From Escherichia coli (GTDB taxonomy: Bacteria > Pseudomonadota > Gammaproteobacteria > Enterobacterales > Enterobacteriaceae), in assembly GCF_024223415.1 (NCBI RefSeq), contig NZ_CP100500.1: 64,000 bases of DNA. One strand, given 5' to 3'. Under the pieces are notes generated by a model. The model was not told where the DNA came from. It made no database searches and was given only the letters and a program-made list of their open reading frames with translations. Below, one piece after another: positions 3,716 to 61,555 of the stretch. Position 1 is the first letter of the stretch. Each line of letters opens with the position of its first letter. A program made the translations under genes and the position numbers.

Positions 3716-6700
3716 ATGAGTGAAGGACCAGGCGGGCCACAGGGAGCGACCGCAGGCGGTACGCTGGCAATGCGAATGCTTTCACAGCAGGCGATGGTCG
3801 CCAGCCAGATGAAACGGGCAGCCAACAACAAAGCCATTGCACAGATGTTGGCATCAAAAAAGTCTGGCCCCCCCGCCGCCAGGCTGGGCGATGAAATTCA
3901 GCACAAGAGTTTTTTGGGGGCGCTGGCAGGGGCCGTGCTGGGGGCGATAGTGACCATCGCAGAAGGTTGCCTGATTATGGCCGCCTGTGCCACCGGCCCT
4001 TATGCGCTGGTTCTGGTGCCTGCGCTGATGTATGCCAGCTATAAGGCGAGTGATTATGTGGAGGAGAAACAGAACCAGCTTGAATCATGGATAAACAGCT
4101 TTTGTGACACGGACGGCGCCATCAATACCGGTTCTGAAAACGTAAAAATTAACGGAAAGCCCGCTGCCAGGGCCGCCGTCACCCTTCCCTCTCCTCCCCC
4201 GCCTGAAGCAATACCCGAAGCCTCACAGGGGGAGCATTCATGGGGTGACATGGCCCTTGACCTGCTTGAATCGGCAGCGGAAAAAGCAGCGCCACTGGCT
4301 AAATCCTGGGGGAACGCTGTTATCACCCTGACGGACAGCAATGCCAGTTTTATGGATCGCGTCAGTGCAGGCGCATCGCTTCTGTTTCCCGCCGGTCCGG
4401 TATTAATGGAGTTTGCCACCATGGTGGGCGGGCGTGGCGAAATCAAAAAAGATGTGGATTTCCCGGAAGCCGGTGAGGACACGGCGCTCTGCGACAAGGA
4501 GAACAAACCACCGAGGATAGCCCAGGGCAGCAGCAACGTCTTTATCAACAATCAGCCTGCCGCGCGCAAGGGCGACAAACTGGAGTGCAGCGCGGCAATC
4601 GTGGAAGGTTCGCCGGACGTCTTTATTGGGGGTGAGCAGGTCACCTATCTGGATATCCAGCCGGAGTTCCCGCCATGGCAGAGAATGATCCTGGGAGGAA
4701 TAACGATAGCCAGCTATCTTCTGCCGCCAGCAGGACTGCTGGGAAAACTGGGGAATCTGGCGAAACTGGGCAAACTGGGAAACCTGCTGGGGAAAAGCGG
4801 GAAGCTGCTGGGCGCAAAACTCGGCGCGTTGCTGGGGAAAACAGGTAAGTCGTTAAAAAGTATTGCCAATAAAGTCATCAGATGGGTAACAGATCCTGTC
4901 GATCCGGTAACCGGCGCGTACTGCGACGAACGTACCGACTTCACCCTGGGCCAGACCCTCCCCCTCTCCTTCACCCGTTTCCACAGTTCTGTACTGCCAC
5001 TGCATGGCCTGACGGGCGTGGGCTGGAGCGACTCCTGGAGCGAATACGCCTGGGTGCGTGAACAGGGAAACCGGGTGGATATCATCAGCCTGGGAGCCAC
5101 GCTGAACTTCGCCTTCGACGGTGAAAGTGATACGGCGGTTAACCCGTATCACGCCCAGTACATTCTGCGCCGCTGCGACGATTACCTGGAGCTGTTCGAC
5201 AGGAATGCACTGAGCAGCCGCTTCTTTTATGACGCCTTTCCGGGAATGCGTCTGCGCCACCCGGTGACTGACGATACCAGCGATGACCGCCTGGCACACA
5301 GCCCCGCAGACCGGATGTACATGCTGGGCGGGATGAGCGACACCGCCAGCAACCGCATCACGTTTGAGCGCGACAGCCAGTACCGGATCACGGGTGTCAG
5401 TCACACCGACGGGATCCGGCTTAAACTGACGTACCACGCCAGCGGCTACCTGAAAGCCATTCACCGCACGGATAACGGCATACAGACGCTGGCGACCTAC
5501 GAACAGGATGCGCGGGGGCGGCTGACAGAAGCGGATGCGCGGCTGGACTACCACCTGTTTTATGAGTACGACGCTGCGGACCGGATCATCCGCTGGTCCG
5601 ATAACGACCAGACGTGGAGCCGTTTCACCTACGATGAACAGGGCCGGTGCGTGACCGTCACCGGGGCGGAGGGCTATTACAACGCCACGCTGGACTATGG
5701 TGACGGCTGCACCACCGTGACGGACGGCAAGGGCATTCACCGTTATTACTATGATCCTGACGGCAATATTCTGCGGGAAGAAGCGCCGGACGGCAGCACC
5801 ACCACGTATGAATGGGATGAATTCCATCACCTGCTGGCCCGCCACTCCCCTGCCAGGCGGGTGGAGAAATTTGAATACAACGCCGCACAGGGTCAGTTAA
5901 GCCGTTACACGGCGGCAGACGGCGCGGAGTGGCAGTACTGCTATGATGAGCGCGGCCTGCTCAGCAACATCACCGACCCTGCCGGGCAGACGTGGACGCA
6001 GCAGTGTGATGAACGCGGCCTGCCGGTAAGTCTGGTGTCGCCACAGGGCGAAGAGACCCGGCTGGCGTACACGCCGCAGGGGCTGCTGTCGGGGATATTC
6101 CGCCAGGATGAACGGCGTCTGGGCATAGAGTACGACCACCACAACCGGCCGGAAACACTCACCGACGTGATGGGCCGTGAACACCACACCGAATACAGCG
6201 GTCACGACCTGCCGGTGAAGATGCGCGGCCCCGGCGGTCAGTCAGTGCGGTTGCAGTGGCAGCAGCACCATAAACTGAGCGGCCTTGAGCGGGCAGGAAC
6301 CGGCGCAGAAGGATTCCGCTATGACCGCCACGGCAACCTGCTGGCGTACACGGACGGTAACGGCGTTGTCTGGACAATGGAATACGGCCCGTTCGATTTG
6401 CCGGTGGCGCGAACGGACGGTGAAGGCCACCGCTGGCAGTACCGCTACGATAAAGACACGCTGCAGCTCACAGAAGTCATTAACCCGCAGGGTGAGTCTT
6501 ATCTTTATATTCTGGACAACTGTGGCCGGGTGACGGAAGAACGTGACTGGGGCGGCGTGGTCTGGCGTTACCGTTATGACGCTGATGGCCTGTGTACCGC
6601 CAGGGTCAACGGCCTGGAGGAAACCATCCTCTACGGCCGGGACGCCGCAGGCCGCCTGGCAGAAGTCATCACGCCGGAAGGTAAAACGCAGTATGCGTAT

Positions 6701-8536
6701 GACAAATCCGGCAGGCTGACGGGTATCTTCAGCCCGGACGGCACATCACAGCGCACCGGCTACGACGAACGCGGGCGGGTGAATGTCACCACTCAGGGCC
6801 GACGGGCCATTGAATACCACTACCCCGACGAACATACCGTCATCCGCTGTATCCTGCCACCGGAAGATGAACGCGACAGACACCCCGATGAATCCCTGCT
6901 GAAAACCACGTACCGCTACAACGCAGCCGGAGAACTGACGGAGGTTATCCTGCCGGGGAATGAGACGCTGACGTTCAGCCGTGATGAGGCAGGACGTGAA
7001 GTGTTCCGGCACAGTAACCGGGGTTTTGCCTGTGAGCAGGGCTGGAATGCAGCCGGCCAGCTTACCAGCCAGCGCGCCGGACTTTTCCCGGAGGAAGCCA
7101 CGTGGGGCGGGCTGGTTCCGTCACTGGTGCGGGAGTACCGTTACGACAGCGCGGGTAATGTGTCAGGCGTCACCAGCCGGGAAGATTACGGACGGGAAAC
7201 ACGGCGGGAATACCGGCTGGACCGGAACGGCCAAGTCACGGCGGTGACAGCCTCAGGCACCGGGCTGGGCTATGGCGAAGGCGATGAGTCCTATGGCTAT
7301 GACAGCTGTGGCTACCTGAAGGCGCAGTCTGCGGGCAGGCACCGGATAAGTGAAGAGACTGACCAGTATGCCGGAGGCCACCGGCTGAAACAGGCCGGAA
7401 ACACGCAGTATGACTATGACGCCGCAGGCCGGATGGTCAGCCGGACAAAACACCGTGACGGCTACCGCCCGGAAACAGAGCGGTTCCGGTGGGACAGCCG
7501 GGACCAGCTGACCGGGTATTGCAGCGCACAGGGTGAGCTGTGGGAATACCGCCACGACGCCAGCGGCAGACGAACAGAGAAACGCTGCGACCGGAAGAAA
7601 ATCCGCTTCACGTATCTGTGGGACGGCGACAGTATTGCGGAAATCCGGGAATACCGCGATGATGAACTGTACAGCGTACGGCACCTGGTGTTTAACGGCT
7701 TTGAGCTGATAAGCCAGCAGTTCAGCCGGGTACGGCAGCCGCACCCGTCCGTGGCTCCGCAGTGGGTGACGCGGACGAATCATGCGGTGAGCGACCTGAC
7801 GGGCCGGCCGCTGATGCTCTTTAACAGTGAAGGTAAAACCGTCTGGCAGCCGGGACAGACCAGCCTGTGGGGGCTGGCACTCAGCCTGCCCGCAGACACA
7901 GACTACCCGGACCCGCGCGGGGAACTGGACCCGGAAGCCGACCCCGGCCTGCTGTATGCGGGACAGTGGCAGGATGCGGAATCCGGGCTGTGCTATAACC
8001 GGTTCCGGTATTACGATCCGGAAACCGGAATGTACCTGGTGAGTGATCCGCTGGGGTTGCAGGGAGGGGAGCAGACTTACCGGTATGTGCCTAATCCTTG
8101 TGGGTATGTTGATCCCTCTGGGTTGGCAATGACTTCGAAAATAGTCAATAAACTACCTTCTGCAAAAGATCTTGCTACAAAAAGGGCCAGTGAGTTATTA
8201 GCAAAGGCAACATCTAATACCCAGCGAAGTAAATTACCAAGGGCAGTTTCAGCTGTTGTTGATAAGAGAACTGGCAAAATATATTATGGAGAAAGTGGCT
8301 GGCCTCACCCAACAGAAATACATCCTACATTACAAAATAATATGCCATCAGCCAGTAAGGAGCGATGGGCAATCGAGAACTGTGCGGAATTTAAAGCTGT
8401 AAATGAAGCTTTGAAGGCAAATGCGAAAATTAGTGATCTTGAAGTTCATACAGTATTGGTAAAAACAGGCGAAGCTTTTCCAATGTGTAAGAATTGTCAA
8501 ATTTCAATATTTGGCGCTGTTGTTACAAGCGGGTGA
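3716..8536 (+). CDS. prePAAR/PAAR-domain Rhs polymorphic toxin (T6SS effector) with deaminase-like C-terminal domain
   Basis: 1606 aa; prePAAR motif AARLGDEIQH, hydrophobic helices, PAAR-like segments (NGKPAARAAV, NNQPAARKGD), long YD-repeat core, DPLGL demarcation motif, then ~140 aa divergent AT-rich tail containing CAE...PMCKNC. Confidence 0.9.
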   Translation: MSEGPGGPQGATAGGTLAMRMLSQQAMVASQMKRAANNKAIAQMLASKKSGPPAARLGDEIQHKSFLGALAGAVLGAIVTIAEGCLIMAACATGPYALVLVPALMYASYKASDYVEEKQNQLESWINSFCDTDGAINTGSENVKINGKPAARAAVTLPSPPPPEAIPEASQGEHSWGDMALDLLESAAEKAAPLAKSWGNAVITLTDSNASFMDRVSAGASLLFPAGPVLMEFATMVGGRGEIKKDVDFPEAGEDTALCDKENKPPRIAQGSSNVFINNQPAARKGDKLECSAAIVEGSPDVFIGGEQVTYLDIQPEFPPWQRMILGGITIASYLLPPAGLLGKLGNLAKLGKLGNLLGKSGKLLGAKLGALLGKTGKSLKSIANKVIRWVTDPVDPVTGAYCDERTDFTLGQTLPLSFTRFHSSVLPLHGLTGVGWSDSWSEYAWVREQGNRVDIISLGATLNFAFDGESDTAVNPYHAQYILRRCDDYLELFDRNALSSRFFYDAFPGMRLRHPVTDDTSDDRLAHSPADRMYMLGGMSDTASNRITFERDSQYRITGVSHTDGIRLKLTYHASGYLKAIHRTDNGIQTLATYEQDARGRLTEADARLDYHLFYEYDAADRIIRWSDNDQTWSRFTYDEQGRCVTVTGAEGYYNATLDYGDGCTTVTDGKGIHRYYYDPDGNILREEAPDGSTTTYEWDEFHHLLARHSPARRVEKFEYNAAQGQLSRYTAADGAEWQYCYDERGLLSNITDPAGQTWTQQCDERGLPVSLVSPQGEETRLAYTPQGLLSGIFRQDERRLGIEYDHHNRPETLTDVMGREHHTEYSGHDLPVKMRGPGGQSVRLQWQQHHKLSGLERAGTGAEGFRYDRHGNLLAYTDGNGVVWTMEYGPFDLPVARTDGEGHRWQYRYDKDTLQLTEVINPQGESYLYILDNCGRVTEERDWGGVVWRYRYDADGLCTARVNGLEETILYGRDAAGRLAEVITPEGKTQYAYDKSGRLTGIFSPDGTSQRTGYDERGRVNVTTQGRRAIEYHYPDEHTVIRCILPPEDERDRHPDESLLKTTYRYNAAGELTEVILPGNETLTFSRDEAGREVFRHSNRGFACEQGWNAAGQLTSQRAGLFPEEATWGGLVPSLVREYRYDSAGNVSGVTSREDYGRETRREYRLDRNGQVTAVTASGTGLGYGEGDESYGYDSCGYLKAQSAGRHRISEETDQYAGGHRLKQAGNTQYDYDAAGRMVSRTKHRDGYRPETERFRWDSRDQLTGYCSAQGELWEYRHDASGRRTEKRCDRKKIRFTYLWDGDSIAEIREYRDDELYSVRHLVFNGFELISQQFSRVRQPHPSVAPQWVTRTNHAVSDLTGRPLMLFNSEGKTVWQPGQTSLWGLALSLPADTDYPDPRGELDPEADPGLLYAGQWQDAESGLCYNRFRYYDPETGMYLVSDPLGLQGGEQTYRYVPNPCGYVDPSGLAMTSKIVNKLPSAKDLATKRASELLAKATSNTQRSKLPRAVSAVVDKRTGKIYYGESGWPHPTEIHPTLQNNMPSASKERWAIENCAEFKAVNEALKANAKISDLEVHTVLVKTGEAFPMCKNCQISIFGAVVTSG

Positions 8537-57532: not shown

Positions 57533-58470
57533 CCCCTGAATCCTGCCGGGATCTGGCTGTAGTCCACATTGTCGTAACTGGCTTTGAAGTACGGGTCTTC
57601 GCGTTTTTCTGTGTACGTGCTGACGGACGGCGATAAGCGCAGGGAAAGCTCATCCCATTTTTCCCGCAGCTTCGACGGGCTGAGCACGTTACGGCACCAG
57701 AACGGATCGCGGCTGACGCGGCTGTAAATCTCGCAGATTTGTTTGTGAGTACGACCATCCTGCACACACATCAGGCGAATTTCGTTTGCCCAGGCTGTCC
57801 AGTTCGGTTCTTTGGGACGAACCACCTCGCCGTCACATTCGGCAGCCTGCTCGTACAGGGCGATGATTTTTTTCCAGAGCCACTGTGCGCAGGTCAAATC
57901 ATCCTGCGTCCCCCACTGGCGTTTTTTAGGGCTGAATACAACCGCATCAGGATGGCGAGTTAAAAAATCCTGTTCAGCCGTCTGCGTGTCCGGTTGCGAA
58001 GAGTCCGGACGAGAAGGTTTTTTATCTGACGGATCATGTTTTGATTTTACTGACGGATCCCCGCCAGATTCTGACGGGTGAAAACCCGCTTTTTTGCCAG
58101 ATTTCGACGCATCAAATTTTGACGGGTCAGATTTTGATGCGTCAGATTTTGACGGGTCAGAATCTGACAGTTGAGAAAATGCCGCTGCCTGAAGCTTCGC
58201 AACGTTAAGCTGATAAACATTCGACGCATTGCGGTTACCCTGGCGACGCGCCTTACGCGTTAACCAGCCTTCTGCTTCCAGCCGTGCGATAGCCGTTCTG
58301 ACGGTACTCATCCCCGCGCCAATCTGGCGGGCAATGGTTTCAATCGATGGCCAGCACACACCTTCGTCATTACTGAAATCAGCCAGGCGGGCCATAATTG
58401 CCACGCTGGATAATTTCATGCCTGACGCTGCGCAACCATCCCATACATAGCCGGTTAATTTAGTGCTCAT
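57529..58470 (-). CDS. phage replication initiator (HTH N-terminal domain, O-like)
   Basis: 313 aa; N-terminal replication-protein HTH; central low-complexity SKSD repeat coinciding with DNA iterons. Confidence 0.75.
   Translation of the reverse strand: MSTKLTGYVWDGCAASGMKLSSVAIMARLADFSNDEGVCWPSIETIARQIGAGMSTVRTAIARLEAEGWLTRKARRQGNRNASNVYQLNVAKLQAAAFSQLSDSDPSKSDASKSDPSKFDASKSGKKAGFHPSESGGDPSVKSKHDPSDKKPSRPDSSQPDTQTAEQDFLTRHPDAVVFSPKKRQWGTQDDLTCAQWLWKKIIALYEQAAECDGEVVRPKEPNWTAWANEIRLMCVQDGRTHKQICEIYSRVSRDPFWCRNVLSPSKLREKWDELSLRLSPSVSTYTEKREDPYFKASYDNVDYSQIPAGFRG
58020..58170 (-). repeat. iteron-like direct repeats (candidate replication origin) inside the replication gene
   Basis: Recurring (C/T)TGACGG(A/G)TC with ~15-bp period, e.g. 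tcagattttgacgggtcagattttgatgcgtcagattttgacgggtcag. Confidence 0.5.
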
Positions 58471-58818: not shown

Positions 58819-59486
58819 GCGTTAGTTTCTCCACAACCAGAAGCAATCGACGCCACGACGCCCGGAGCTGCACACTCGCGGGCGTCATTACTTTCTGAAA
58901 TGCAAAAGATTTTGTAGACCAGTGCTGCATGCTCCTGCAGCTTCGAAATTGAGAGATACAGCTCGTCGTTAATTGCTGTCTTCTCATGCGGTTCCACTAC
59001 ACCGTCTTCGATTGCTGAACGAATCTGTTTTGAATAACTGCCGATCTGTTCAATGACTTCCAGCAGACGCTGGTTAATATCGGCGTTGTCCACATCCTCG
59101 ACGTCAGGAAGAGACACAAAGACGCCATTTGCAGACTGCGCCACAGCGTCAGCAATGAAGTGAGTTCCACCAGCACGTTGCAAAATCATTGCCCATCCCA
59201 GCGGGAAAATCTGATCGCCATCGGCACGAAGGCGGTTAAATAATGCGTTCTCTGTTACATCCAGCCAGTCAGCTGCTTCAGCGTAACCACCCGGCAACTT
59301 TGCGATAGTTTTTCTGACAGCTTTCACGTACCACTCAGGCTGTTTTTCTACTTTCCAGTGATGCTTACCCACGGTTAGCCTCATCGTTCTGTGGTTTCTG
59401 TTAATCGATTTATCCATTAGATTTTTCATAAAGCTCAGGTTTAAATGGCAACCGTCCGCAAGTTCTATATGCAGCTTCTGCTGCAC
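58815..59486 (-). CDS. putative CII-like early regulatory protein
   Basis: ORF directly downstream of cro-like gene; true start probably an internal Met at ~59384-59429 because the longest ORF overlaps cro. Confidence 0.45.
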
Positions 59487-59610
59487 GTCCTTTTGGAATT
59501 AACTGGCCCGGACGGTTTCGCCACTGATAAACGGCTTCAGTTGTTATGCCGAAAAAAGCAGCAACTTTCTCAATACTGCCGAAGTAGCTTTCGATATCGT
59601 CAGTTGTCAT
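59410..59610 (-). CDS. Cro-like HTH regulator
   Basis: 66 aa; divergent from repressor gene; HTH-like segment (VAAFFGITTEAVYQWRNR). Confidence 0.75.
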   Translation of the reverse strand: MTTDDIESYFGSIEKVAAFFGITTEAVYQWRNRPGQLIPKGRAAEAAYRTCGRLPFKPELYEKSNG

Positions 59611-59707
59611 ACGCCCTCCAAACTAAGTTTTGTTAGATGCTAATTACAAATCTATCTTTGGTCAATAAAAACTAAGATTACTTAGCAATTAAAGAAATGG
59701 TGCTCCT
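59611..59707. promoter_or_regulatory. divergent cro/cI control region with two operator-like 14-bp palindromes
   Basis: CTAAGttttGTTAG at 59623-59636 and perfect CTAAGattaCTTAG at 59672-59685 between divergent starts. Confidence 0.55.
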
Positions 59708-60334
59708 ATGGAAACGGTTGGTCAGCGTATAAAAGCTCTGAGAAGAGTTACCAGAACGTCCCAGAAAGAATTGGGTAAATTTTGTGGAGTAAGCGACGTT
59801 GCTGTGGGGTACTGGGAGAAAGACATCAATACCCCTGGTGGGGAGGCACTTTCGAAATTAGCGAAGTTCTTCAATACGTCAATAGATTACATTCTTTATG
59901 GTGCTGAGTTTGAAGGCAAACTCGTCACAAACATGCGCAGAGTTCCTGTAATATCGTGGGTTCAGGCTGGGCAGTTTACTGAGTGCAGGGCAGCAGAAGT
60001 GTTTAGTGAAGTGGACAAGTGGGTAGATACATCATTAAAGGTTGGTGATAACTCATTTGCATTAGAGGTTAAAGGTGACTCCATGACTAACCCTAATGGC
60101 CTCCCAACAATACCAGAAGGCGCAACAGTGATTGTAGATCCAGATGCAGAACCTCGTCATGGAAAAATAGTCATCGCTCGACTTGATGGAACAAACGAAG
60201 CTACAGTAAAAAAATTAGTCATCGATGGCCCTCAAAAGTTTTTAGTGCCATTAAATCCTCGGTATCCCAACATCCCTATCAATGGTAATTGCCTTATCAT
60301 TGGTGTAGTCAAAGGAGTTCAATACGAACTCTAA
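59708..60334 (+). CDS. CI-type repressor (HTH + S24 LexA-like peptidase domain)
   Basis: 208 aa; N-terminal HTH (SQKELGKFCGVSDVAVGYWE); C-terminal catalytic Ser/Lys context (VKGDSMTNP ... KKLV). Confidence 0.9.
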   Translation: METVGQRIKALRRVTRTSQKELGKFCGVSDVAVGYWEKDINTPGGEALSKLAKFFNTSIDYILYGAEFEGKLVTNMRRVPVISWVQAGQFTECRAAEVFSEVDKWVDTSLKVGDNSFALEVKGDSMTNPNGLPTIPEGATVIVDPDAEPRHGKIVIARLDGTNEATVKKLVIDGPQKFLVPLNPRYPNIPINGNCLIIGVVKGVQYEL

Positions 60335-60413
60335 GGCCTCTCTTCTCTAACTAAGGCACCGAACTAAGAAAAGTTTGGTGTTTTCTCTTGCCATAATAAC
60401 TAAGTTAAGTTAG
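60331..60413. promoter_or_regulatory. cluster of CTAAG operator-like motifs just downstream of cI
   Basis: CTAAG at 60331, 60351, 60364 and palindrome CTAAGttaaGTTAG at 60400-60413, same half-site as the cro/cI region. Confidence 0.4.
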
Positions 60414-60564
60414 ATTTTATATCAAAGATAACGAACAGGCAGGACGCCCACGAAGTAGCCGCCTGGGGCATATAAAGTCCAGGATGATTCGTTAGCAACA
60501 AAAAAGCGCCCTACAGGACGCTTAGCTCTTTAACAATCTGGGTATCATCCAACCAATGCAAGAT

Positions 60565-61086
60565 TTAAGGAATCCAAGGCGAATTCAGATCTCGCCCCAA
60601 CTCACGTAATGATCTTGGTCGTTCGTACATCGGATTTTTTTCCATAAGAAATTTATTTTCACAGTGAAGGCAACGGCTTGTAAGAAAATGAGAAGTTTTA
60701 CCTACTGGAAGCGGATGAAGTATCGATTTTATATTTTTGGAATAACAAAGTGGGCACAGATGCACAGTTATTTCTTTTCCACTCACAATTTCATTTTTAG
60801 AGTAAACAAAAGCACCAGAGTCAAGCTGATCAAGGACATATCCTTCTACCTTGGCACAAAAATCTTCAAACTCTGCAATTTTTGCTTTGAGATGCATCAC
60901 CTCTTCATCACGAAGGCGGATCGCATCGCCAAGAGAGAAGCATTCTGCCTGAAGCGTGATTAGTTTGTTCTGGAGTTCAATGGTTGCAGCTTTAACTTCT
61001 GCATCCGTTTTCGCGTCATTAATAACCTTAGCAAGACCGGCAGTCTCCTTTATAGCGGCCATAGCCGCAGACAGTTCAGCTATCAC
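60565..61086 (-). CDS. hypothetical coiled-coil / zinc-ribbon protein beside the immunity region
   Basis: 173 aa; N-terminal coiled-coil-like region; C-terminal CPLC-x24-CLHC; convergent with cI; antisense frame is low-complexity. Confidence 0.6.
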   Translation of the reverse strand: MIAELSAAMAAIKETAGLAKVINDAKTDAEVKAATIELQNKLITLQAECFSLGDAIRLRDEEVMHLKAKIAEFEDFCAKVEGYVLDQLDSGAFVYSKNEIVSGKEITVHLCPLCYSKNIKSILHPLPVGKTSHFLTSRCLHCENKFLMEKNPMYERPRSLRELGRDLNSPWIP

Positions 61087-61373
61087 GTTGAATACTCAGC
61101 TAGTTGTTGGGGATATCCAGATTAACCAAATCCTTGTTGTTGGGGAATAACTAGGTCCACCTCGCCTGATGTGGCTAAAAGCAGGCACATAACAGCTAAG
61201 TATTTTCAACCAGAGAGAATCCTTAGCGTTGTGGTGAATGCGGCTCAGCGCACGCGGGTTAAGGTTGAGGCTGACAGTCGACCTTCTGTGGATACCCACC
61301 CGCCTGGTGTGCAACCTTCGCCAGGCACCGGGAGGCACCCGGCACCACAACTTTATGCTGTGTGTAGTCCTGG

Positions 61374-61418
61374 CGGTACCAGCTTGTACCCTTGCTTCCG
61401 GCTGGTACCGTCCTTTTT
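61374..61418 (+). terminator. strong stem-loop plus U run in the leftward-operon leader
   Basis: Perfect 10-bp stem cggtaccagc / gctggtaccg with 17-nt loop, then tccTTTTT. Confidence 0.5.
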
Positions 61419-61555
61419 ACAAAACAGAGAAGAGCATCACCGGACGACGGGCTCATAACCCAATCCATCCGGGCGGCAGTCACCGCAGGTGTTCTTCTCT
61501 GTTTTGTGGAGAAACTAACCGACCTTGCAGGGTCGATATGATGAGGAGCAGCAAA

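Follow-up and report, generated by a model that had tools for sequence, protein, structure and literature searches.

Prophage accessory genes, such as those for exclusion and abortive infection, are on in the lysogen and yet harmless to the lytic growth of the phage itself. The sas solution that phage P22 has for its gene sieB, a 1993 finding, is usually treated as a one-off. Ranade and Poteete (1993, Genes Dev 7:1498) reportedly described both the P22 sas antisense RNA and the sieB promoter. The RNA is an antisense regulator of sieB, an exclusion gene, and acts by switching translation (PMC12197685, PMC7067206). Small-RNA sequencing has defined it (as P22A-sas) as a 127-nt species that was detected in infected cells only (PMC13397905 Table 2), and this reported sequence is identical to positions 1501–1627 of our P22 locus L243 and nearly identical to the related locus L136.

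Here we compare with this system a short direct repeat in an Escherichia coli prophage, found within a 64-kb window (the whole stretch of DNA that was analysed, 64,000 nucleotides). Judged by homology, the repeats represent a duplicated G-rich segment within a conserved control cassette of prophages, one related to sas/P sieB, and the same type of cassette recurs in front of many unrelated genes.

A direct repeat upstream of a prophage accessory gene

The region of the window that holds the repeat is the immunity region of an SfV/SfIV/e14-like lambdoid prophage, with the following features.

59410–59610, minus strand: P22-Cro-type gene
59708–60334, plus strand: LexA-type CI gene
59621, 59665, 60362 and 60398, on both sides of cI: operator repeats AACTAAG-N4-(G/C)TTAG
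60388–60416, plus strand: PL-like promoter TTGCCA-17-TAGATT, flanked by the CI-operator repeats at 60362–60415
60504–60523, minus strand: intrinsic terminator of the 173-aa gene, completing a promoter-gene-terminator cassette
60565–61086, minus strand: accessory (moron) gene for a 173-aa CxxC...CxxC zinc-ribbon protein, with a GTG start at 61086
61198–61421, plus strand: STnc100/PasD-family RNA (Rfam RF02076), 42.4 bits, below the gathering score of 47

The four AACTAAG-N4-(G/C)TTAG copies (59621–59690 and 60362–60415) flank the CI gene and are likely the OR and OL operators. The CI gene is followed by operators and PL, by the minus-strand antisense gene and then, 5 nt beyond the GTG of that gene, by the element described below; this order of repressor, PL and antisense gene abutting the element agrees with the layouts of P22 and lambda. 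After the STnc100-like RNA come yfdP, yfdQ and yfdR. Elsewhere in the prophage, clustered direct and inverted repeats at 58095–58170 (ATTTTGACGGG, GTCAGATTTTG), within a replication-protein O-like gene, resemble origin iterons and give a spurious Rfam match to mir-5880.

The 173-aa protein combines a coiled-coil-like N-terminal region with the CxxC...CxxC motif and belongs to PHROG 1244 (E = 2.7e-52); searches with PADLOC and Pfam assigned it no function. In an all-against-all BLASTP comparison it clusters apart from both P22 SieB and lambda SieB. On protein similarity, then, the gene beside the element is not sieB, so the SieB/Esc translational switch need not apply to it. The GTG start at 61086 is backed by synonymous changes upstream of Met9 in the related locus L001. 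An in-frame Met at codon 9 is kept in the gene family (MIAE[LF][ST]AAM..., 61062–61086, minus strand).

The earlier note had reported a 13-bp direct repeat at 61110–61160, with copies about 36 bp apart. Two copies are present, the first of them beginning 7 bases before that interval, and what is repeated exactly is the 11-mer GTTGTTGGGGA.

61103–61113 (extended, 61100–61113), plus strand: repeat copy 1, exact match, kept in relatives
61136–61146 (extended, 61133–61146), plus strand: repeat copy 2, exact match

The window contains no third copy. The two lie 33 bp apart from start to start, with a gap of 22 bp between them, so that the spacing of 36 bp needed correction; the 13-mer GTTGTTGGGGA(T/A)A is obtained only by inserting one base in copy 2 (copy 1 reads ...GGGGATA and copy 2 ...GGGGAATA). 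Extended into the flank, the repeat becomes CT(A/T)GTTGTTGGGGA, identical at 13 of 14 positions, and with the indel in copy 2 allowed the similarity reaches about 25 nt in relatives (GTTGTTGGGGA(A)TAWCCAGRTYMACC). The copies are 17–60 bp upstream of the GTG of the 173-aa gene and about 50–95 nt upstream of the structured RNA that begins near 61198.

First-order Markov simulations of 64 kb gave a mean of 0.5 exact direct 11-mer repeats at a spacing of 11–50 bp, with at least one in 40% of simulations. The window actually holds five, at least three of which are otherwise explained (one as a coding peptide repeat, two as part of the iteron-like repeats), and with one mismatch allowed there are 3 matches against 1.2 expected. 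Judged within the window alone, the repeat is not compelling; because it is not rare by chance, the case for function rests on conservation and comparison. A look-alike repeat, TGCTGGGGAAA (at 4785 and 4830, within 4740–4840), is a coding peptide repeat in a 1606-aa ORF (3716–8536) and is unrelated.

Homology to P22 sas and P sieB

We built a covariance model (R1) solely from P22, lambda and 11 class-2 (GTAGGGG-class) metagenomic sequences, with no class-1 sequence among them. Its match delimits the following feature.

61091–61187, plus strand: full sas-like element of about 97 nt, a predicted antisense RNA whose ends are also predicted

The match extends over model positions 1–98 of 98 with 62.6 bits (E ~1e-15) and is the only strong one in the 64-kb window; P22 and lambda score 118.9 and 113.6 bits, and the aligned identity of the window element is 66% to P22 and 72% to lambda. 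R1 also recovers all the other classes of element, including the one-hairpin elements of e14 and SfV. In lambda the element is directly upstream of sieB on the PL-sense strand. The P22-pbi record has P sieB annotated inside the element, and the corresponding P22 locus positions 1543–1573 map to 61119–61149 of the window.

Sequence comparison thus identifies the GTAGGGG class as the sas RNA of phage P22, and the window element as a further sequence variant of the sas-type element, attached to a gene other than sieB. What the earlier note overlooked is that the repeats belong to a structured antisense RNA of the P22 sas type. Rfam has no family over 61090–61190 or over the P22 sas locus at E <= 1, and a literature search with the sequence strings of the element returned unrelated primers only.

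Conservation and spread of the element

The 70-nt segment 61087–61156 is present in 1492 of 5426 complete E. coli genomes and also in phages of Shigella, Klebsiella and Salmonella. Both copies are retained in relatives whether the adjacent gene is about 80% identical or wholly different. The repeat region is nearly unchanged, and more conserved than the adjoining coding sequence, in relatives whose 173-aa gene has diverged to about 80% identity; in other relatives it stands ahead of different minus-strand genes (PHROGs 5286, 7681 and 10846). The same repeats occur in prophages with differing repressors, namely LexA-type CI proteins of 208 or 225 aa and RacR.

Two pattern scans of IMG/VR collected more than 130 distinct versions, every one of which ends in the core CCAC..GCCUG..GUGG..A-rich..CAGGC. 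Before the core there is one of two arrangements: either two G-rich copies about 33 nt apart, in four classes (GTTGGGG, GTAGGGG, CTGTGGAA and ATTGGGG), or, as in e14 and SfV, only one hairpin, whose stem covaries. In the first arrangement the copies co-vary across lineages, each class having its motif twice (GTTGGGG x2, GTAGGGG x2, CTGTGGAA x2, ATTGGGG x2), with a copy identity of 0.86 within sequences against 0.72 between them, a value reached in none of 2000 permutations. ST64B, whose DNA matches the region in part, gave no element with the covariance model.

Of 129 distinct contexts, 112 have a minus-strand ORF, equipped with a Shine-Dalgarno sequence, that begins just past the element. Similarity clustering divides these ORFs into 36 groups, of which some small ones may be spurious. 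The element, which lies in the PL operon of many lambdoid prophages, stands ahead of about 30 unrelated gene families and is invariably placed at the 5' end of the adjoining gene. One gene cluster may have various element classes and one class various gene clusters, and gene-plus-element units are found in tandem. Terminator-gene-element units in one orientation, like stacked cassettes, were seen in the related loci L165 (two cores 655 nt apart), L020 and L151, and the tandem units hint at exchange through recombination at the conserved element. Its place ahead of some 30 unrelated families, together with tandem units, is what would be expected of a portable promoter/antisense cassette. The right-hand flank of the element varies freely among relatives. 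The repeat/pseudoknot and cassette pattern also brought to mind type III toxin-antitoxin RNA repeats and integron attC-like sites; both were set aside, as they do not fit the strand and the variable gene content.

Could the repeat be a chance product, or the functionless remnant of a neutral tandem duplication at a mosaic junction? About 0.5 direct 11-mer repeats within 50 bp are expected per 64 kb, and the segment does lie where variable cargo borders on a conserved leader. This reading is nevertheless already contradicted by the conservation data: both copies persist in roughly one in four E. coli genomes, as well as in phages of Salmonella and Klebsiella, in a region more conserved than the adjoining coding sequence; the copies co-vary, and compensatory changes preserve a hairpin around the second of them. 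We regard it as very improbable.

In two deposited records ORFs are extended or placed across the sas-like element into the STnc100-like RNA (L001 2633–3361, PhiR29_1; L005 2404–2748, SfIV_35); these are probably over-calls of non-coding sequence.

Predicted structure of the plus-strand RNA

Two structural features were placed on the plus strand.

61132–61155, plus strand: hairpin HP2, CCUUGUUGUU-GGGG-AAUAACUAGG, from folding and covariation over relatives
61157–61186, plus strand: core, a candidate H-type pseudoknot of two interleaved helices, located by regular expression

HP2 consists of 9 pairs, of which 61139.61148 is a G.U pair, with a U.U mismatch at 61135/61152; repeat copy 2 constitutes its 5' arm and GGGG tetraloop. 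Over 77 relatives its mean folding energy is −9.6 kcal/mol on the plus strand against −4.3 on the minus strand, a gap that arises because many positions are G.U pairs. RNAalifold likewise gave −14.4 for the plus strand against −6.75 for the minus strand and recovered HP2 on the plus strand only. On the model-guided alignment, 9 of the 10 pairs have changes on both sides and pairing holds in 91% of cells; none of 500 shuffles matched the covariation observed, and no slid register comes close.

In the core, helix S1 joins CCAC (61157–61160) to GUGG (61171–61174), and helix S2 joins GCCUG (61164–61168) to CAGGC (61182–61186), with the A-rich loop CUAAAAG at 61175–61181. S2 is 100% paired, one of its pairs changing from U-A to G-C in six sequences. 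By eye, S1 has the variants CGCG/CGCG, CACG/CGUG, CCACG/CGUGG and CCUC/GAGG; its formal covariation count is weak because divergent rows are misaligned. A pseudoknot after HP2 is likely. The single-sequence fold of the element was no better than that of shuffled sequences (z = +0.20). A hairpin around copy 1 was also sought: it is present in the P22 class, and no consistent register was found in the class of the window.

A predicted minus-strand promoter inside the element

The P sieB annotation of P22 falls on a predicted promoter of the opposite strand.

61119–61147, minus strand: predicted sigma-70 promoter of the 173-aa gene (P sieB homologue), from positional scoring over relatives and the P22 annotation

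It consists of the −35 sequence TTCCCC (complement of 61142–61147), a 17-bp spacer and the −10 sequence TAATCT (complement of 61119–61124), so that the −35 is contained in the complement of copy 2 and the −10 lies between the copies. The agreement with the consensus is at 6 of 12 positions only, and a generic promoter scan of 61087–61200 on both strands returned no site; the promoter emerged only through family-wide positional scoring and the P22 annotation. In a position-weight scan the same offset is the best minus-strand promoter in most two-repeat relatives, the −35 being TACCCC or TTTCCA in other classes and the −10 varying among TAATCT, TATAAT, TACTCT, TAAAAT, TAAACT and TAATTT, with T1, A2 and T6 always retained. 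The mRNA of the 173-aa gene is accordingly predicted from sequence to start at about 61112–61116. Given this position of the promoter, with its −10 between the copies, the complement of copy 1, UCCCCAACAAC, would form the first bases of the predicted mRNA.

Of the two proposals in the earlier note, that the repeats could be promoter elements or protein-binding sites for divergent transcription units, the first gains from these data, copy 2 overlapping the predicted −35 of a promoter for the minus-strand zinc-ribbon gene that aligns with P sieB of P22-pbi. Divergent transcription finds no counterpart, as no plus-strand promoter is predicted or conserved within the element: the best scores for a sigma-70 promoter of the downstream RNA are scattered and low. 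Two further candidates were rejected. A sigma-54 promoter in the core (GG-N10-GC, seen by eye) does not maintain its spacing among variants, and a 5' UTR riboregulator on the minus strand is at odds with the G.U pairs, which favour the plus strand, with the lack of a conserved promoter to the right and with the position of the promoter inside the element.

Binding by the CI repressor or Cro, as the earlier note envisaged, is not borne out, since their operators have the form AACTAAG-N4-(G/C)TTAG, to which GTTGTTGGGGA is unrelated; neither OR nor OL contains the motif, and repressors differ among the prophages that have these repeats. A more general version, in which the copies bind a phage or host DNA-binding regulator at −35 and +1 that represses or activates the promoter, with RNA structure secondary, ranks as the main rival to an antisense function. 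Identical direct repeats do straddle the predicted promoter, their 33 bp, or about 3 turns, put them on the same helical face, and co-variation of the copies between lineages is as would be seen with a co-evolving protein. Yet the motif occurs nowhere else in the 64-kb window, it bears no relation to the CI operators, and its class is independent of the type of repressor and of the cargo gene. The sequences flanking copy 2 covary in the manner of a hairpin, with G.U pairs on the plus strand, which a duplex site does not predict. We therefore hold recognition of both copies by a DNA-binding protein to be unlikely.

Probable plus-strand transcription in the early left operon

By analogy with the gene order of lambda and P22, the PL-like promoter at 60388–60416 is the likely source of plus-strand transcription across the element. 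With no plus-strand promoter predicted in the element, read-through from PL is the simplest origin of the RNA, and it fits the appearance of P22 sas only on infection.

On the plus strand, the terminator hairpin of the 173-aa gene is followed by GCTCTTTAACAA (60505–60536), an exact match to the rrn-type boxA core. This boxA-like sequence (60525–60536) sits 570 nt upstream of copy 1. Many related loci have strict boxA matches 500–1250 nt upstream (PL sense) of their sas-like core, and L147 has a boxA right behind the core; as sequence signals these matches suggest Nus-factor-dependent antitermination in the PL transcript.

The 'structured leader' of the earlier note belongs to the prophage sRNA family STnc100/PasD and has an intrinsic terminator near 61380–61417. 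In the e14 prophage of E. coli K-12 the STnc100-like stretch is annotated as a protein, YmfH (ORF 'ymfH'). The STnc100-like RNA begins 11 nt past the core of the element, and the repeats lie outside the RF02076 model, whose match covers 61198–61421 only.

These surroundings raise an alternative in which the element acts in cis within the RNA of the PL operon, as a put- or nut-like signal for antitermination or by stabilising the 5' end of the STnc100-like RNA and early-left mRNA, and does not regulate the antisense gene. It would account for a structured plus-strand RNA within the PL operon, for the boxA-like sequence upstream (and right after the core in L147) and for the closeness of the STnc100-like RNA. 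It does not account for the fact that in 112 of 129 contexts the element adjoins an antisense gene at its 5' end, for the presence of one element per gene in tandem arrays, or for a right-hand flank that is free to vary. In P22, moreover, the annotated nutL precedes gene 24, over 1 kb upstream of the element, and the P22 member of the family is documented as an antisense regulator; put of HK022 is described as two stems with no pseudoknot directly after PL (PMC9378689). We judge a cis-acting role of this kind to be quite unlikely. An N-type nut site (nutL/boxB) was separately rejected, gene 24/N and nutL standing upstream of the element in both L136 and P22, and a put-like antiterminator was set aside, as the element goes with antisense genes and is found in tandem.

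A model for the cassette

We consider it probable that the repeats are the G-rich motif of a sas/P sieB-type cassette which drives, and then silences, an accessory gene lying antisense in the PL operon. For the minus strand, a weak sigma-70 promoter would take its −35 from the complement of copy 2 and would allow expression of the accessory gene in the repressed prophage. In lytic growth or superinfection, transcription from PL would yield a plus-strand RNA antisense to the 5' end of the accessory mRNA, presumably processed to a sas-like species. Copy 1 would be the 5', target-complementary part of this RNA, and copy 2 would be displayed in the GGGG-tetraloop hairpin, followed by the pseudoknot-like core. 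As with P22 sas, pairing with the leader and start region of the accessory mRNA might shut off or re-route its translation, and the phage would thereby escape a function expressed by its own prophage.

The model also offers a possible reason for the duplication. As copy 2 has the same sequence as copy 1, the 5' end of the mRNA is complementary to the loop and 5' arm of HP2 as well, and we infer that HP2 may be a fast recognition site at which antisense pairing begins.

More tentatively, and as a possibility that we would not yet put on the same footing, the sas/P sieB element may be a portable dual-strand switch of lambdoid prophages (lambda, P22, SfV, e14, Rac- and Qin-like), serving any of dozens of unrelated accessory or exclusion genes, which would be expressed in the lysogen and silenced once PL fires. 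The duplicated loop would be a co-evolving, self-matching recognition code, and the RNAs would form an undescribed family with five or more specificity classes, found in about one quarter of E. coli genomes. The data do indicate a sas-type cassette, in several classes, before about 30 unrelated families, including those of K-12 e14 and lambda, and such a portable cassette before many accessory genes is a more interesting lead than a single variant. If the wider reading is true, the element would provide a sequence marker for prophage-expressed accessory and defence genes in the immunity-left region, would define an RNA family missing from Rfam and would yield a testable rule, namely that the two copies must match for the antisense RNA to find its target. 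For annotation, 61091–61187 would be entered as a regulatory RNA and promoter, not as an extended ORF as in some relatives.

Comparison with known systems

The closest system is sas/P sieB of P22, which has the same two G-rich repeats, the GGGG-loop hairpin over the −35 and the CCAC/GCCUG/GUGG/CAGGC core, has the same location within the early-left operon, where it is antisense to the 5' end of an opposed prophage-expressed gene, and has its annotated P sieB in alignment with the predicted promoter of the window. It differs in motif (GUUGUUGGGG in the window, CUGUAGGGG in P22), in the sequence of the hairpin stem and in the gene served, which is an unrelated 173-aa zinc-ribbon protein here and the membrane protein SieB with in-frame Esc in P22. 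The conserved Met9 of the 173-aa family nonetheless recalls the two-start design of SieB/Esc that sas RNA exploits. The region upstream of lambda sieB carries the same element (72% identical to that of the window), but of the P22 class (CUGUAGGGG) and before SieB; the lambda record has no RNA annotated there.

Prophage e14, upstream of ymfI, and phage SfV share with the window the core, its position and the STnc100-like RNA downstream, but have a single hairpin (conserved loop CUGUGUGAGAAC, covarying stem) and no direct repeat.

L004 2933–3032, upstream of ymfI: one-hairpin element of E. coli K-12 e14 (R1 E = 2e-11)
L003 3021–3119, upstream of an unannotated minus-strand ORF: one-hairpin element of phage SfV (R1 E = 5e-10)

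In both, a predicted extended −10 (TGGTATNNT) abuts the core. On these matches, E. coli K-12 may itself encode an undescribed sas-like antisense RNA.

Lambda OOP, IS10 RNA-OUT, CopA and Sok resemble the predicted RNA as short structured RNAs opposite the 5' or 3' end of a target, with a stem-loop that possibly starts pairing, and have no sequence relation to the window element. Compared with such classical cis-antisense RNAs, the RNA of the window seems to be without a promoter or terminator of its own, and its recognition motif is duplicated. HK022 put, a two-stem RNA directly after PL or PR that occurs once per operon and acts on RNA polymerase and that carries no annotation in NC_002166, differs in architecture from the window element, which has a pseudoknot-like core and is found once per antisense gene, sometimes in tandem. 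Finally, the 173-aa gene is like other morons in having its own predicted promoter and intrinsic terminator between phage genes; what sets it apart is that its promoter region is a conserved, structured dual-strand element common to many unrelated morons.
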